From a virus (taxonomy: Duplodnaviria > Heunggongvirae > Uroviricota > Caudoviricetes), in IMG/VR virus record IMGVR_UViG_2657244940_000009, positions 1-8,998 of that record: 8,998 nucleotides of DNA; one strand, given 5' to 3'. Positions 1-6,449 of this stretch are shown here, piece after piece. Made by a program: the position numbers and the translations under genes. Below the pieces are notes generated by a model. It was not told where the DNA came from and did not search any database. It was given only the letters and a program-made list of their open reading frames with translations. Numbering within the stretch: position 1 is the stretch's first letter; each line of letters opens with the position of its first letter.

Positions 1-237
1 CAACGGTTCGTTCCCTTCACATAACCCGGCAGCAACATCCATGAAAAACTGCTTCGCCTGCTTTTTCGCCTCAGCTTCGTAAAACTCCAGCGTGGCACCT
101 TCAGTACGGTCAAGACTAATCGCCACATTTGCCAACAACAGTGACGGATACCCACCAATTTCCAGTGCCACAGTAACAGTAATCTTATCCGGGTAATGAT
201 TTATCCCTTTAACAACCAGTTCGTATTTTTTCTTCAT
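1..237 (-). CDS. Hypothetical protein, 5' part only (79 codons, continues off the left edge); not a recognisable endolysin
   Basis: Manual reverse-strand translation from ATG at 237..235: MKKKYELVVKGINHYPDKITVTVALEIGGYPSLLLANVAISLDRTEGATLEFYEAEAKKQAKQFFMDVAAGLCEGNEPL, no stop before position 1. Absent from the ORF track because it is open-ended. Starts 4 nt after the holin stop. Confidence 0.45.
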   Translation of the reverse strand, partial: MKKKYELVVKGINHYPDKITVTVALEIGGYPSLLLANVAISLDRTEGATLEFYEAEAKKQAKQFFMDVAAGLCEGNEPL

Positions 238-241
238 CGCT

Positions 242-457
242 TTACTCTCCCCGCGCCGCCTTACGACGGTCCTCTCTGATTTTGAAATACAGGTTAGTCA
301 GATATGTCAGCAGCCCAAACAGCAGACTTCCCAGTACGCCTATTGCCGCCCACTGAGACGGGGAAACCCTGTCCAGCAGCTGCAGGAACCAGTAGCCCGT
401 CCCCACCGCTGACGTGGTGTATGACACACCTGTTGTGATTTTTTCCATCTGGTACAT
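242..457 (-). CDS. S: Holin, S21/Stx-phage type (class II, pinholin-like), 71 aa
   Basis: Track ORF of 71 aa; sequence matches my recollection of the 933W/phage 21 holin family ([36 protein letters not shown]). Dual-start motif M1-Y-Q-M4; GGGAG Shine-Dalgarno upstream. Confidence 0.9.
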
Positions 458-532
458 ACCCCGTCTCCCGCAATCCGGAAGCTCACAACAACAAGAGGGG
501 CATCAGCTCACACCGACAGCCCCTGCGCATGG

Positions 533-802
533 TTACATCATCATTTCGCCGTCAGGCTGAGGCTCACTGCTACCATCAGGCTGAGACCCGACGCCATCTG
601 AAACAGCACTGTCATCCGCAATGCCTTCCGGCTCCGGAACAGTCGGTGCGCCCAGCAGTTCATCCAGAATGGCATCCACTTCTGCATCAAGACGCTCCTC
701 AAGGTTCTGCCGAAGTTGCTGTTTCAGTGCGCTTCTGACTTCTTCAGAGCGCAGGACTTCCTTCACTGCTTCAGCAGTGACCAGCGATTTTATTTCTGAC
801 AT
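533..802 (-). CDS. Hypothetical acidic protein, 89 aa (start taken at internal ATG; the track's 127-aa version would overlap the upstream ORF)
   Basis: Track ORF 533..916 uses a non-ATG start and overlaps ORF 840..1022. The internal ATG at 802..800 gives MSEIKSLVTAEAVKEVLRSEEV...PDGEMMM. Shine-Dalgarno is weak; no family recognised. Confidence 0.45.
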   Translation of the reverse strand: MSEIKSLVTAEAVKEVLRSEEVRSALKQQLRQNLEERLDAEVDAILDELLGAPTVPEPEGIADDSAVSDGVGSQPDGSSEPQPDGEMMM

Positions 803-839
803 GGTATTTTCTCGTTGAAAGGTGTTGTTAAGAAAGTTG

Positions 840-1022
840 CTACGGAATGAGAGGCTCTTCGGGTTTTGTTCCGGCTGACTGACTGGCACTGATTTTCTCA
901 GCGGCCCTTTTGTCAATCTGTCTGCGCCAGAAATCTCTCACGACTCTGTACCCACCAGAAAGAAGATACAGCACACAAACTGCTGTACAGAAATACAACA
1001 TAATCAGCTGTAAAAATGTCAT
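840..1022 (-). CDS. Small membrane protein, 60 aa, one N-terminal transmembrane helix and a basic C-terminal tail
   Basis: ATG at 1022..1020 preceded by GGAG at suitable spacing (GGAGATGAATAATATG on the minus strand); hydrophobic stretch LQLIMLYFCTAVCVLYLL. Confidence 0.55.
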   Translation of the reverse strand: MTFLQLIMLYFCTAVCVLYLLSGGYRVVRDFWRRQIDKRAAEKISASQSAGTKPEEPLIP

Positions 1023-1171
1023 TATTCATCTCCATTATTGACATGGTCAATGCCTGCCAGTAAAAAACTCCTGCATTTTTTGCTCAGCATATTTTTGCTA
1101 AGGATGTAGCGACTTCTGCCGCCGGTTCTGGCTCCTTGTTTTCCCTGCCACGGCGGTCTTTTTTTTCCTGC

Positions 1172-3115
1172 TTACGGGTTATTCACTTCCACTGTTATAC
1201 TTTCAATCAGCACCGTATACGTCGCCGCTTTTGTGATATCCGTTACACGTAATTTGTCTGCCGCAAAAGAACCTACCGGAGACTGCGACAGCATGAACGG
1301 TGCACCATCCTGACCATCAATCACCGGCGTCACCTGAATGCTGTTATTACCGGCAAAACGGAAGCCCAGCGTATGCCATTCGTTGTCAAATGCGCCGAAT
1401 GACCCCAGCTTCGTGTTCTGGTCAGCGTTACCCTTGTGGTACATCACGTTGAGGTCTGTGGCATCGCTCTGTACGTAAAACGACGCCAGCAGATTGTTAC
1501 CGGCATTACCTTCCAGTGTGACACCCTGAGGCAATGAAGAAACCGGCCAGTACAGCGCCAGTGCGTACTGATTAGCCGTAAGCGCGCCATCGAGTTTAAA
1601 ACGACAACTGACAAGACCACCTTTACCCAGCAGGTCCGCACCATTACCAGCATCATGCTCAAGGTACCAGGGGGCTCTTCCTGTTTCCTTGGTCAGTTTC
1701 ATTGCCTTACCCCCGCTGGCTCCGGCATCATCCACGATTTGAGCCTTGCCACCTCCAGCAGCCCAACCCTGTGGTGTCAACCGTCCTTCAGACTCAGATG
1801 CCCGGTAAGCAAATAGCGTACTCATCGTCGTGGTGTCTGCGGGTGGCGTGGACGGTTTTGATGGTGTATCAGGTGACGGCTTCTCATCCGGTGGTGTCAC
1901 GGTCTGCCCGCGCATCAATTCAGCCGTGCGCCCTGCATGGAGCATAATAGCTGAGGCCAGACGGTCTGAAATGACGCCCCTGCGTGCCCATGAGCTGAAA
2001 TGGCTGTCACGCTGTGTCGAAACAAAACTGCCCTGGGTTCGGGATGCTGCACCGTAATACCCGACAGCCACAATATCCGGGTCTTCCGCCGGAGCATTCG
2101 TTGGCGTGCTCTGTCCATTCTCATCCGTCAGGAACGGTACAAAGAAAATATTCTGTGCTTCCCTGCCCTTGTAACCGCCATATACCGCCTCATATTTATC
2201 GGCGTTAAGATTCTTCCAGTAATACGTGGTGTCACCACAAATCCACGGCACCGAGCCAGCACTTCCGCCAACACACTGTGCAGAATATGCAGCCATATCA
2301 GCCCTGAACTGCTGCACCATAGTGGTAAACAGGCCGCTGTGCTGCTGACTGCCGTCCGCAAGATCATTTTCCCCCTGCATCCATACCACGGCCAGAAGCC
2401 TGTTTTTCGGGTTCTTCGACAGCGCCGCTTTTGTACGGAAGAGAAAATCCTGATACAGCGGTTTACCCACTCCCCAGCGGGCTGAATTTGCCGATGCGCC
2501 AGACGTTTCGCTGAACGTGCCGTCATTACCCACGGTTAAACCAGACCCGCCACGGCAACAGGGCACCAGAAGAATCCCGGCATTCTGCGGGATATAAGGC
2601 AGCAGTTTTTTGGCAATATGCAGCCCCTGACCGACAGTCCCGTACTGGCCCTTACTCAGGTCTGCATGAGGATGGTTAAGTGCGCTCATGTCCTGAACAT
2701 CATGCAGACAGTGGTCTGCCGGAATAACGTCATTGTATGCACAGATATCACCACCCGGCGTCACAGTGCTGCGACGGGCCAGCTGCTTAATACGGGAGTC
2801 AGGGCGATCATAGGTCTCCGGCAGAGGAAGCCCCTCACCATAGGCCATACCGTTCGACTGCCCGGCCAGGGGAATAACGTAGTAATACTCCGGTTCAGTG
2901 GTAGCCACTCCCGGAGAGCCACCAGCCCCTGTGTCGGGCACAACCACAGGCGTGGTCACATCACCCTCTGCGGCAATGGCCTGCATCAGTGTATAAGGCG
3001 TGATAGCCACAGGACTGCCAAACGGCTGCCAGCCTTCCTTCAGTTTTTGTGTCAGTCGCTCCGCAAGGTCTGACGGCGACGCCGCCCTGACCACGTCATA
3101 GTGTTTAAATGCCAT
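1172..3115 (-). CDS. nanS-p: Prophage sialate O-acetylesterase NanS-p (N-terminal DUF1737-like region plus SASA/SGNH esterase), 647 aa
   Basis: Track ORF 1172..3145 starts at TTG; the ATG at 3115..3113 has a strong Shine-Dalgarno (GGGGAGGAATA-ATG) and gives MAFKHYDVVRAASPSDLAERL, the N-terminus I recall for Stx-phage NanS-p. GQSN motif (IPLAGQSNGMAYGEG) is the SASA esterase block. Position (downstream of Q/tRNAs, upstream of holin) matches Stx prophages. Confidence 0.85.
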   Translation of the reverse strand: MAFKHYDVVRAASPSDLAERLTQKLKEGWQPFGSPVAITPYTLMQAIAAEGDVTTPVVVPDTGAGGSPGVATTEPEYYYVIPLAGQSNGMAYGEGLPLPETYDRPDSRIKQLARRSTVTPGGDICAYNDVIPADHCLHDVQDMSALNHPHADLSKGQYGTVGQGLHIAKKLLPYIPQNAGILLVPCCRGGSGLTVGNDGTFSETSGASANSARWGVGKPLYQDFLFRTKAALSKNPKNRLLAVVWMQGENDLADGSQQHSGLFTTMVQQFRADMAAYSAQCVGGSAGSVPWICGDTTYYWKNLNADKYEAVYGGYKGREAQNIFFVPFLTDENGQSTPTNAPAEDPDIVAVGYYGAASRTQGSFVSTQRDSHFSSWARRGVISDRLASAIMLHAGRTAELMRGQTVTPPDEKPSPDTPSKPSTPPADTTTMSTLFAYRASESEGRLTPQGWAAGGGKAQIVDDAGASGGKAMKLTKETGRAPWYLEHDAGNGADLLGKGGLVSCRFKLDGALTANQYALALYWPVSSLPQGVTLEGNAGNNLLASFYVQSDATDLNVMYHKGNADQNTKLGSFGAFDNEWHTLGFRFAGNNSIQVTPVIDGQDGAPFMLSQSPVGSFAADKLRVTDITKAATYTVLIESITVEVNNP

Positions 3116-3203
3116 TATTCCTCCCCTTTCCGGGATTTTCCTCAACAGTTGCGGGCCACGGTCCGGCTACACGGAGAATCAAAAGAGGAGAACCGCAGCC
3201 CGC

Positions 3204-3234
3204 AAAACGAAAAAGGCCGCGCAGTTGCGCAGCC
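3204..3234 (-). terminator. Candidate intrinsic terminator or attenuator in the nanS-p leader
   Basis: Minus-strand stem GGCTGCGC / GCGCGGCC (8 bp, one G-U), loop AACT, followed by TTTTTCGTTTT. Confidence 0.45.
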
Positions 3235-3298
3235 TTATCACAGATGGTAAAAATCAGAACACGATAATAAAAATACCTGATGTATATTCATGCGACCC

Positions 3299-3326
3299 GC
3301 CCGCCACTCACTGCGGGCTTTTTTTT
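3299..3326 (+). terminator. Plus-strand intrinsic terminator-like hairpin (opposite to flanking genes)
   Basis: gcccgc (3299-3304) / gcgggc (3313-3318), 8-nt loop, then T8 (3319-3326). Confidence 0.45.
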
Positions 3327-3334
3327 GCCCATAG

Positions 3335-3361
3335 AAAAGCCCCTCCGGAGAGGGGCTTTTT
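3335..3361. terminator. Bidirectional intrinsic terminator
   Basis: Perfect 7-bp stem gcccctc / gaggggc with 4-nt loop, flanked by AAAA on one side and TTTTT on the other, so a T-run follows the stem on either strand. Confidence 0.6.
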
Positions 3362-3601
3362 ACAGTGGTAGTGTAGACAATTTTGCATGGTGCCGGGTGC
3401 CTCCCGGTGAGTTCAGTATCAGCACCTGAACCCGCACAGAAAGGATAAGGGTCGGTGACAAAACACCAGTTGCTGATTGCCCCTCCGCTTAGGGGGATTC
3501 ACCATGCCAGTTTCTTTTAACAAACTCCCCGCAAACCAGACAACAGTCAACCGCCTGAATTGTGAGGTATTTAAAAATTTCAACGGGTAACTGATACCCT
3601 G

Positions 3602-3763
3602 CTAATCGCCTGATGCTTTCTTTTTCAGCAACGGGAAAGCAACAACCACCACACCCGCCACCAGCACACCGTCAGCCAGCACTGACATTATCCGGCTGCT
3701 GAAGTCCACCATCACCACCATCACCACCAGAAACAGCAGGAGCGCAACCACAGCCAGACGCAT
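3602..3763 (-). CDS. Small hydrophobic protein, 53 aa, two predicted membrane helices; start 8 nt after the TerB-like stop
   Basis: Manual translation: MRLAVVALLLFLVVMVVMVDFSSRIMSVLADGVLVAGVVVVAFPLLKKKASGD. Below the ORF-track size cut-off. Weak Shine-Dalgarno and a repetitive GTG/CAC-rich sequence, so a chance ORF is possible. Confidence 0.3.
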   Translation of the reverse strand: MRLAVVALLLFLVVMVVMVDFSSRIMSVLADGVLVAGVVVVAFPLLKKKASGD

Positions 3764-3771
3764 TTTTACCG

Positions 3772-4203
3772 TCACAGATGATTCTCCAGACGAAGGCCCA
3801 GAACACCGGCAATCTCTTCCAGCACCTTGCGCTCTTCCGGCTCTATTTCGCCGTCTGCTTCGGCAATGGCCACCGCCACATCCAGCACGTCTTCCGCTTC
3901 ACGCGTATCGTGTTTCACATCCTCGATCTCACGTAACGCCGCTCGACGACCAATTTTAAAGTTCGTATCCAGCTGACCGATAATGGTTGCGCTAATCGCA
4001 TTAATTTCTGACGTAAACGCGGACAACGCAGGCTGGTTACGCAAGACCTGCTCGATCTTCGCTTTCTCTGAAGCCTCACATTCACCATCTGCATAGGCCA
4101 CCAGATAGGCAGCATTAATAACCGCCTGTGCCAGATCACGTTTCTCAAACTTTTTAATTTCCACTGCCGCTCGGCGGGCTTTTTTACCAAAAATACCAAA
4201 CAT
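3772..4203 (-). CDS. TerB-like (tellurite-resistance TerB family) domain protein, 143 aa
   Basis: Track ORF 3772..4275 starts at a non-ATG codon; ATG at 4203..4201 has AAGGAA 7-8 nt upstream and gives MFGIFGKKARRAAVEIKKF. Two TerB-like segments (AAYLVAYADGECEASEKAKIEQVL and VAVAIAEADGEIEPEERKVLEEIAGVLGL) resemble the helix-aDG-helix repeats of TerB as I recall them. Confidence 0.65.
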   Translation of the reverse strand: MFGIFGKKARRAAVEIKKFEKRDLAQAVINAAYLVAYADGECEASEKAKIEQVLRNQPALSAFTSEINAISATIIGQLDTNFKIGRRAALREIEDVKHDTREAEDVLDVAVAIAEADGEIEPEERKVLEEIAGVLGLRLENHL

Positions 4204-4335
4204 CGTGACGTTCCTTTGGGTGGGTGAGCCAACGCCCGGGAGCGATCTGCCCACAGAGAAAGTCACACTGACCACTCCGTAAGCTCACCCCCGAAAGGCT
4301 CTGTGGTTGATATGCGCCGGGCGTGGCGCAGATAC

Positions 4336-4358
4336 AAAAAAAGCCCGCCGAAGCGAGC
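4336..4358 (-). terminator. Intrinsic terminator after the tRNA cluster
   Basis: Minus-strand GCTCGC-TTCG-GCGGGC (one G-U) followed by TTTTTTT. Confidence 0.6.
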
Positions 4359-4371
4359 CTGATAATAAATC

Positions 4372-4446
4372 TGGAGCGGGTAGCGGGAATCGAACCCGCA
4401 TCATCAGCCTGGAAGGCTGAGGTAATAGCCATTATACGGTACCCGC
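4372..4446 (-). tRNA. tRNA-Gly (anticodon TCC), phage-borne, glyT-like
   Basis: Hand-folded: perfect 7-bp acceptor GCGGGTA/TACCCGC, anticodon stem TCAGC/GCTGA, loop CTTCCAG, T-arm GCGGG-TTCGATT-CCCGC, discriminator U, encoded CCA. Position 8 is C rather than the usual U. Confidence 0.75.
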
Positions 4447-4449
4447 ATA

Positions 4450-4525
4450 TGGTGCCGGCTACCGGAATCGAACTGGCGACCTGATGATTACAAGTCAGTT
4501 GCTCTACCATTGGAGCTAAACCAGC
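4450..4525 (-). tRNA. tRNA-Thr-like (anticodon TGT) with degenerate anticodon and T stems; possibly a pseudo-tRNA
   Basis: Acceptor GCTGGTT/AGCCGGC pairs with two G-U; canonical D-arm GCTC-CAATGGTA-GAGC; anticodon stem only 3 bp with loop CTTGTAA; T-stem has one mismatch; discriminator A; encoded CCA. Confidence 0.5.
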
Positions 4526-4530
4526 ATGTT

Positions 4531-4605
4531 TGGCGGGACAGCGTGGACTCGAACCACGATAAGAAGGTTAACAGCCTTCCGTAATGACCTTTATACGACT
4601 GACCC
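4531..4605 (-). tRNA. tRNA-Asn (anticodon GTT), phage-borne
   Basis: Perfect anticodon stem GAAGG/CCTTC with loop CTGTTAA; perfect T-arm CGTGG-TTCGAGT-CCACG; acceptor GGGTCAG/CTGTCCC with one mismatch; discriminator G; encoded CCA. Confidence 0.7.
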
Positions 4606-4609
4606 AAAT

Positions 4610-4651
4610 AAAAAAAGCCACCGTTGCAACTTAAGAGTCACTAACGGCAGC
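4610..4651 (-). terminator. tR'-like terminator between Q and the tRNA genes
   Basis: Minus-strand 9-bp stem GCUGCCGUU / AACGGUGGC (two G-U) with a 17-nt loop, followed by TTTTTTTATTT that abuts the 5' end of tRNA-Asn. Confidence 0.45.
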
Positions 4652-4696
4652 ATATGCCAATAGTGTTGCTCATTTGCTCAATGATGTCAACACGTC
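4652..4696 (-). promoter_or_regulatory. Candidate pR'-like late promoter / Q-utilisation region
   Basis: Consensus -35 hexamer TTGACA on the minus strand at 4690..4685, just after the Q stop; I could not identify a convincing -10, so this is positional inference from lambdoid architecture. Confidence 0.25.
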
Positions 4697-5185
4697 CTAT
4701 GCTACATGTTTAATTTTCTCTACACGTTTCCGGTTTTTAAACGCACTATCCAGAACCGGGTAAATCATAAACAACGAGGCATTAAGGATTTCGTCAACTT
4801 CCCGTCGACAGGTTGCGAGCGATGGTTTTTGAATGCGCCCGCCGCCCCGGCATAACATCTTGCGAGGTCTTGCGACGCAATGATAGTAAGATGCAATGGC
4901 GTGCCTGGAAGAACCATGAGCGTAGTAGCTGAGGAGGATGCCGAAGGCTTTCTTGTCAATGTACATGACGGAATCGACGACCTGAGAAATCAACATTCCA
5001 TCATCATCATTACACATTGGCCTTGTCATAACTCTTCCCGGCTCTACGCTCTCCATGAACTTCGCTATTACGCTGCTCATGCGCTTTTCCAGACGACCTG
5101 AATAAACCCATGCGCCCCACAGTTCAAGCCAGCCATTCAGCCACTCGTGCTGTTCTTTGGTGAGGTTTAGTTCTCTTATGCCCAC
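4697..5185 (-). CDS. Q: Late antiterminator Q (phage antitermination Q family), 162 aa; start codon uncertain
   Basis: WGAW motif and Cys/His cluster ([14 protein letters not shown]) as in Q proteins of 933W-type phages as I recall them; immediately downstream of ninI with a 10-nt overlap; track start is GTG with GGAG/AAGG upstream. Confidence 0.8.
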
Positions 5186-5847
5186 GCGCCTTCTCCCTGT
5201 ACCTGAATCAATGTGAGGTTTCCGCAGAACACTGCGCCGGTATCGATATACATCTGGTTGGCAAACTTGAGTGGTTTCACTGCTGGCGTATGACCAAAGA
5301 TGAACGTGTCCGCGCCTTTAATTTCTTTCACGATCCCGTCTTGTGAGTTGCCGATTCGTTCGCGGTTCCAGATTACCTGCTGAGGATCAACTGGCTTTCC
5401 AAATTCGTATTCGTTACAAGGATAATCGGCGTGGCAAATGACATATTTTTTATCTTTGCTCACCAGTTCGATGATTAACGGAAGTTCTTCTGCTTTATGG
5501 GCAAGAGCTTTAGCCAGAATCTCTTTGTCGTAATCGAGATTGAAGAACCAGCCACCGCCATTAAGCAGCCAGTGATTAACGTTTCCACGCTCTGATAAGC
5601 CATCAATCATCATTTGCTCATGGTTTCCACGTACAGCTCTGAACCAGGGGAATGTGATTAATTCCAGACATTCGACGTTCTCTGTACCGCGATCAACCAA
5701 ATCGCCAACCGAGATGAGCAGGTCTTTTTTGTTGTCGAATCCAATCGTATCCAGTTTGTTCATCAGGTTCGTGTAGCATCCGTGCAGGTCGCCAGCTACC
5801 CAAATATTTCGGTATTTGCTGCCATCAATTCTTTCGTAGATATTCAT
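5176..5847 (-). CDS. ninI: NinI Ser/Thr protein phosphatase (lambda PPase homologue), 223 aa
   Basis: Near-identity over most of the length to lambda phosphatase as I recall it; metallophosphoesterase motifs GDLHG, GDLVDRG, GNHE; ATGA overlap with the ninG stop. Confidence 0.95.
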
Positions 5848-6449
5848 GCAGCCTCACTTCTGCTATTTCGCAGTTTTTTAAGTTTCTGTTGGTACTCTTC
5901 CTTGATCGCCTTGCACTCTTCGACAGTCCAGCGATGGCGGTTATGGTTTGATTCGATTTCATCTACTGCTTCCTGCCCGATGCGGCTAATCAGTTCGACG
6001 CGATACGGAACGAGATTTCCGCTTTTGTGCTGGTTGCACACCACGCATTGCTTGTGAATATTGCGTTCATCAAATCGGAGTTGAGGTGCCGCAGCAGTTG
6101 TCCGGTAATGTCCGGCATCCCACTGAGCAGACGTGAGCGTTCCGCACGAGATACATGGTAAGTCGCGGTCTCTTTCTCTGATGAAGGCGTTTACGGCTTG
6201 TTGGGCTTGTTTAATCCAGTAACTGCGGGGCTTTAAGGCGAGTTTTCGAATCTTCAGTTTATCTTTCTGTTTCTGCTCCTCTCGTCGTCGTTTCTTCTCT
6301 GCTGCTTTTTCCGCTTTTTCGCGTTCTTTACTTCGTCGTTCGAGTGCTAATTGAGTTCCGTGTTCCGGGCAGCACCACCACTGATTTGAGAATGCCGGGT
6401 GAAACCATTCTTTGCATATTTTGCATTTCCTTCGCGCTGGTTTAGCCAT
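5844..6449 (-). CDS. ninG: NinG (Rap) protein, 201 aa
   Basis: Strong match to lambda NinG as I recall it ([65 protein letters not shown]); Cys-rich motifs; TAATG overlap with the upstream gene. Confidence 0.95.

Follow-up and report, generated by a model that had tools for sequence, protein, structure and literature searches.

Which gene follows the holin at the left end of an 8,998-nt stretch of Caudoviricetes DNA (IMG/VR record IMGVR_UViG_2657244940_000009, positions 1 to 8,998; hereafter the window), and what could its product do there? A preliminary description of this DNA had pointed to an open reading frame (ORF) that begins 4 nt after an S21-type pinholin gene and is not a recognisable endolysin. 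We find that this ORF (bases 237-1, minus strand) is almost certainly the 5′ part of a ydfR gene (DUF1327). The family and the gene arrangement are already known and widely annotated, and the window appears to carry a standard P21-type cassette, with ydfR in its usual place. As to function, we tentatively propose that YdfR is produced late and acts in the cytoplasm, where it modulates RNase E and RNA turnover of the host, a reading that we regard as possible rather than probable.

Identity of the truncated gene

The ATG of the gene lies at 237-235 on the minus strand, and the frame stays open for 79 codons up to base 1 (1..237, minus strand; assigned by translation and Pfam PF07041), giving the peptide MKKKYELVVKGINHYPDK...CEGNEPL. 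The holin stop codon TAA (244-242) is separated from this ATG by the spacer AGCG (238..241, minus strand, 4 nt, taken from the sequence), and the minus strand reads ...GCG CGG GGA GAG TAA agcg ATG AAG AAA AAA TAC GAA across the junction. This re-reading agrees with the preliminary description in its coordinates, in the distance of 4 nt and in the peptide MKKKYELVVKGINHYPDK.

That description had also suggested a profile search, and such a search places the ORF in DUF1327. The 79 residues matched Pfam PF07041 with 128.6 bits (E 1e-37, profile positions 1-76 of 93), far above the gathering cut-off of 25 bits; therefore, the ORF is not a chance frame. A spurious ORF was additionally rejected on the basis of purifying selection and a confidently predicted fold (see below). 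The best protein match was 95% identical, and the RefSeq name at near-identical E. coli loci is 'YdfR family protein'. All conserved core residues identified in alignments are contained in the 79 residues of the window, namely Y5, E6, L7, K10, V21, R44, E46, G47, L50, E51, F52, Y53, E54, A57, F65, A69 and L72. Full-length relatives comprise 72-120 aa, mostly 103-120 aa. The PHROGs families matched by the ORF (2091, 1085 and 406) are all of unknown function.

Searches with Pfam and other profiles yielded no match of the ORF to lysozyme, transglycosylase, amidase, spanin or holin families. There was no match in NCBIfam either, and a profile search of Protein Data Bank sequences returned only noise (E ~0.9). 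The earlier statement that the ORF is not a recognisable endolysin therefore holds, and its product belongs neither to a known endolysin family nor to the Rz-type spanins. An endolysin of the lysozyme, transglycosylase or signal-arrest-release (SAR) type was rejected because the protein has no lysozyme-type catalytic domain and no SAR or signal segment. We rejected an Rz/Rz1-type spanin based on a top 19-residue hydropathy of 1.36, the absence of a lipobox and the presence of separate Rz homologs downstream of the endolysin gene R in relatives. A holin or antiholin was rejected because there is no transmembrane domain and the predicted model is a soluble β3-α unit; the sole mildly hydrophobic stretch (residues 22-40) corresponds to a β-hairpin and is hydrophilic in the other clade of the family. 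A known anti-phage defence protein was rejected as well, since PADLOC defence models matched neither the window protein nor its closest full-length relative.

The window corresponds to an entire contig of a draft assembly (CDRA01000216.1 of GCA_000947375.1, 8998 bp), and the truncation of the ORF is therefore an assembly break and not a biological event; the record offers no sequence to the left of base 1. Contigs of sister assemblies with an identical esterase allele likewise break inside ydfR, which suggests that a repeat common to several prophages stops the assembler and that no deletion has taken place. The continuation of ydfR is supplied by a sister contig (...CEGNEPLPEKRPVILEAQDV), and based on this sequence the window gene would continue into the common 114-aa form.

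Gene order and translation starts in the lysis cassette

The gene upstream of ydfR encodes a class II (P21 S-type) pinholin of 71 aa (242..457, minus strand). It matched Pfam PF04971, 'Bacteriophage P21 holin S', with E 9e-33, which confirms the S21-type assignment made earlier. The protein is 100% identical to the holins of three of the related loci (L001, L005 and L009). It keeps the S21-like dual start M1-Y-Q-M4, and its three-residue extension contains no lysine; the S21 71 antiholin form carries a lysine in its extension.

We examined 13 loci with a close YdfR homolog, including the Qin prophage of K-12, the two E. coli chromosomes nearest to the window (L001 and L005), the phages H-19B, mEp460 and Evi, representative genomes of E. 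ruysiae, E. albertii, E. coli and Shigella flexneri, and two contigs from metagenome-assembled genomes (MAGs). The order class II holin, 4 nt, ydfR, SAR-type lysozyme was found in all 13. The spacer between holin and ydfR measures 4 nt in the 12 loci other than Qin (AGCG, AGTG, TTCA, GACA or TCCA), and Qin has the same spacing. The lysozymes share an N-terminus of the form MN.KI.YGLSAAVLALIAAGA and start 50-640 nt downstream of ydfR or overlap its stop codon. An Rz-type gene follows the lysozyme in at least 10 of the 13 loci (nine by tblastn, Qin by annotation). In the window, the class II holin adjoins ydfR upstream, and the contig ends before any position that a lysozyme could take.

The preliminary description had offered two explanations for this arrangement, a small gene inserted between holin and endolysin, or a remodelled lysis cassette. 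Because the cassettes of the relatives are intact, we conclude that the first of these is correct. The second would mean that ydfR has replaced the endolysin in this genome or that YdfR is a new kind of lysin, and the end of the contig inside ydfR, with no endolysin visible in the record, would fit such a replacement. Nevertheless, it finds no support among the relatives, all of which have the SAR lysozyme downstream. Further, the 72-residue β3-α unit has no similarity to lysozymes, amidases or peptidases, and the sister assemblies break at the same place. We consider a remodelled cassette to be extremely unlikely.

Two of the examined loci are located on MAG contigs labelled Veillonella parvula and Bacillota (L011 and L013) and carry an Escherichia-type holin-ydfR-lysozyme cassette. 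These contigs are probably mis-binned E. coli prophage DNA.

The K-12 Qin prophage (essQ-ydfR-rrrQ-rzpQ/rzoQ) encodes a YdfR of the same Pfam family (b1555, P76160), which also starts 4 nt past a class II holin gene, essQ. It is 44% identical to the window protein over 77 residues and retains the R44-E46-G47...L50-E-F-Y-E-A motif, but it falls into a different clade of alleles (MTQDYELVVKGVRNFENK...), and its C-terminal tail is unrelated. The ORF between the holin gene S and R of the Shiga toxin (Stx) 1 phage H-19B and of many Stx1a/Stx2c-converting phages is 93.7% identical over 79 residues. The order holin-ydfR-R-Rz is retained there, and the full-length protein has 114 aa; in H-19B, the S-R interval that holds ydfR is not annotated.

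The gene is an optional part of such cassettes. A 460-nt query spanning holin and ydfR matched 3058 of 5426 complete E. coli genomes and was covered to at least 80% in 1380 of them. A YdfR homolog was present in 100 of the 434 phage records with this holin type, and these were mostly Stx1a- and Stx2c-converting phages. VT2-Sakai encodes a 98.6% identical holin without ydfR, and its R gene starts 4 nt past the S stop codon behind the motif GGGGAGAG (S-R junction at L015 2190-2232). The occurrence of a near-identical holin without ydfR indicates that ydfR is dispensable for lysis by this holin type.

In the window, the same Shine-Dalgarno (SD)-like GGGGAGAG is located in the last holin codons (245..252, minus strand, read from the sequence), 9-13 nt upstream of the ydfR ATG, and GGAG-type motifs are found at -14/-13. 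Our scan for promoter-like or terminator-like sites between holin and ydfR detected none. Judging from these signals, ydfR is transcribed together with the holin and the other late lysis genes in the Q-dependent late operon, and it is probably translationally coupled to the holin. With its SD embedded in the holin gene, YdfR would be made together with the holin. Many Stx1 and Stx2c phages would produce it alongside their lysis proteins.

The start of R differs between cassettes with and without ydfR. In 12 ydfR-bearing loci R is preceded by a conserved ATAAATATC(C/T) and has no GGAG-type motif (ydfR-R junction of a relative at L001 7308-7360). In the K-12 type the ydfR stop codon overlaps the R start (ATGA), while a 50-nt spacer separates ydfR and R in the clade of the window. 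With ydfR at the SD-coupled start, R has an AU-rich leader that lacks an SD. Endolysin synthesis is thus initiated in a different context, and the insertion of ydfR probably also alters the amount of endolysin. This effect could in principle account for the gene by itself: the inserted ORF would take the coupled SD start, R would depend on a weak AU-rich leader or on re-initiation at ATGA, the ratio of endolysin to holin would be lowered or become conditional, and the protein would matter little. Both the difference between VT2-Sakai and the ydfR loci (12 of 12) and the overlapping start in the K-12 type agree with such an explanation. However, a core under purifying selection, a confidently predicted and conserved fold and invariant surface motifs would be unexpected for a pure spacer ORF, and we consider it improbable that the architecture is all that matters.

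Conserved core, allelic variation and possible role of YdfR

The AlphaFold2 model of the 79 residues of the window, calculated from an alignment that included distant homologs, reached a predicted local distance difference test score (pLDDT) of 90.9 and a predicted template modelling score (pTM) of 0.79. It contains strands at residues 5-14, 18-27 and 34-43 and a helix at residues 50-74. YdfR has an isoelectric point of ~5.3, no transmembrane segment and no lipobox. The core (residues 1-72) is confidently predicted to be a soluble, acidic unit of three β-strands and one long helix. In the model of a 114-aa relative, the tail was poorly predicted. A Foldseek search against the viral structures in BFVD gave nothing at E <= 0.001, and no strong structural relative of the YdfR core was found by it. 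The double-stranded RNA-binding domain (α-β-β-β-α) scored within generic fold resemblance. We rejected assignment to this domain (PF00035) because of the missing Pfam match, the absence of an N-terminal helix and the acidic isoelectric point.

A profile search of 1.84 billion representative proteins identified 96 members of the YdfR family. Apart from the two mis-binned-looking MAG contigs, the close family is confined to Escherichia and Shigella (one genome per species scanned). The conserved part of the protein comprises residues 1-72. Y53 and E54 do not vary, not even in homologs of 72-76 aa at 25-35% identity, and the motif R44-x-E46-G47-x-x-L50-E-F-Y-E-A is fixed within the close family. 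Past residue ~75, the tails are of at least four unrelated kinds; the Evi protein (72 aa) lacks a tail altogether, and several fusions were observed. Residues 27-42 (the β2-β3 hairpin) are swapped as a block between clades. Between loci, YdfR is 39-94% identical, compared to 75-100% for the flanking holin and 88-95% for the lysozyme. The ratio of non-synonymous to synonymous substitution rates (dN/dS) between clades is ~0.2-0.3 for ydfR, where synonymous sites are close to saturation, compared to 0.09 for the holin and 0.07 for the lysozyme. By these comparisons, ydfR is a real gene under purifying selection that is more relaxed than that on its neighbours. Compared to its two closest alleles, the window gene carries 5 and 3 changes, respectively, all of them non-synonymous. 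Such counts (5:0 and 3:0) are too low for significance, and we rejected positive selection within this clade.

The common YdfR tail, EKRPIILEAQ.VWITYKGKLPGRITGSLKTPPKW, was also found on a protein with a different, coiled-coil N-terminus (P0159, P0133, L008 2501-3052), and in some alleles ydfR is fused to this coiled-coil ORF. With such shared tails and fusions, the S-R interval holds a variable set of small modules.

Distant homologs of the YdfR core (72-76 aa) were located elsewhere in phage genomes. A 30%-identical homolog (L006 3001-3231) lies within a tail gene cluster, after L-, K- and I-like genes (named by eye). At L024 3001-3219, a Q-like antiterminator gene is directly followed by an ORF whose product is 81% identical to the distant homolog P0203; an unrelated holin, a GH19-type endolysin and Rz/Rz1 lie downstream of this ORF (gene names from translations, by eye). 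Scans of viral contigs with the single proteins P0173, P0166 and P0206 found nothing. As these distant homologs lie outside of S-R junctions, the domain is a cargo of late regions that is not tied to this junction.

YdfR could accordingly be viewed as moron-type cargo at a permissive late-operon site, with a benefit unrelated to lysis or RNase E, for example in anti-defence or superinfection. Its optional and mosaic occurrence, with identities between loci below those of holin and lysozyme, would be expected of such a gene, as would the unrelated tails, the fusions and the block-swapped hairpin, the restriction of a small family to Escherichia and Shigella, and the distant homologs at other typical moron sites. 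The exclusively non-synonymous differences from the closest alleles point in the same direction, although they are not statistically significant. Against this stand the missing PADLOC match, the lack of a promoter-like site of its own in our scan, and RNA-seq data from uninduced K-12 cells in which ydfR is silent or nearly so (PMC13232886). A role in the lysogen is therefore not evident, and we hold the cargo explanation to be rather unlikely.

The name 'DUF1327' appears in a single paper of the literature that we searched, and the only functional study we found is concerned with K-12 YdfR (PMC13232886, RNA Biol 2026). In that study, YdfR was recovered by a two-hybrid screen in which RNase G served as the bait. 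It was reported to bind Rne(1-597), Rne(1-598) co-eluted with Strep-YdfR, and residues 1-72 were enough for the interaction with RNase E. DNase-resistant nucleic acid co-purified with the protein, and few transcripts changed upon its overexpression. The authors liken such RNase E binders to T4 Srd and RapZ. The RNase E-interacting region of K-12 YdfR coincides with the conserved core that we defined here.

The role that we tentatively propose would have YdfR made late in the lytic cycle and acting in the cytoplasm on host RNA turnover. Its conserved core would bind RNase E at the N-terminal half, which is the catalytic one, and might bind RNA as well. This binding may adjust how fast transcripts of the host or late transcripts of the phage are degraded, and YdfR would have no part in envelope disruption. 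As a side effect, ydfR would occupy the SD-coupled start of R and alter R translation. A wider formulation is that YdfR proteins, as late effectors confined to Escherichia phages, attach to RNase E (and RNase G) at the catalytic half, maybe with an RNA surface resembling that of a double-stranded RNA-binding domain, and that hairpin and tails direct them to allele-specific targets; we regard this as conceivable but doubtful. If it were true, lambdoid and Stx phages would start the lysis clock and adjust the RNA decay of their host at the same time.

T4 Srd, a small phage-encoded protein that is reported to bind the catalytic half of RNase E, can be compared to YdfR as a functional analogue only, and we claim no homology. 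Srd stimulates host mRNA decay, whereas a transcriptome effect of YdfR overexpression is nearly absent, and, unlike YdfR, Srd is not part of a lysis cassette. If the link to RNase E is true, YdfR would be a temperate-phage counterpart to T4 Srd and, in Stx phages, could influence how stable the late transcripts are, that of stx included.

T4 RIII and P1 LydB are soluble cytoplasmic lysis regulators encoded beside holins. By description, and by description only, YdfR resembles them, as all three are small, soluble and co-expressed with a holin. By this analogy, YdfR might be a cytoplasmic regulator of lysis timing that binds either the not yet exported SAR endolysin or the basic, cytoplasmic C-terminal tail of the pinholin, and delays or sharpens triggering. 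The position of ydfR inside the lysis cassette, 4 nt past the holin stop in all 13 close-family loci, would suit such a regulator, as would the uninterrupted stretch between the two genes, with no promoter- or terminator-like site. Additionally, an envelope-integrity genetic screen is cited as flagging ydfR (PMC13232886). The main text of the paper on this screen does not mention ydfR, and we therefore give the claim no weight. The pairing of alleles speaks against a regulator of this kind: where the holin is 100% identical, the YdfR alleles are at 91% or at just 53-54% identity, in the latter case from two different clades, and near-identical holins occur without any YdfR. Such free pairing of holin and YdfR alleles argues against a specific partnership. 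Further, distant homologs have holins and endolysins of unrelated types as neighbours or lie in a tail gene cluster, and YdfR has no membrane segment. We see a lysis-timing role as rather unlikely.

Other features of the window

Within the late operon, the interval from a DUF3927 gene to the gene for a NanS-p-type esterase contains a strong match to the small RNA (sRNA) family STnc100 (3327-3536, minus strand; 144 bits versus a gathering score of 47). A TerB-family gene and the gene for the small DUF3927 membrane protein (3602-4275, minus strand) occupy the position of stx in Stx phages, that is, after Q and the tRNAs and before nanS-p. H-19B and the Stx1a/Stx2c-converting phages carry stx upstream, where the window instead has the TerB-family gene, the DUF3927 gene and the STnc100 sRNA. 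Three tandem tRNAs were identified with Rfam (4375-4605, minus strand). ARAGORN reports only two of them (Gly-TCC and Asn-GTT) and misses the middle one (4453-4525), which is annotated as tRNA-Thr in a relative.

Towards the other end, the chromosomal gene ogt (8256-7741, minus strand) and the chromosomal sRNA McaS/IsrA (8698-8603, minus strand) adjoin an ORF with a P22_AR_C domain and an antirepressor gene (window 7246-8698). No integrase, repressor or replication module was found between the chromosomal genes and the antirepressor region within these bounds, and the prophage looks truncated or rearranged at the ogt/McaS end. An IS1 InsA-like fragment is present at the far end of the contig (about 8811-8996, plus strand).
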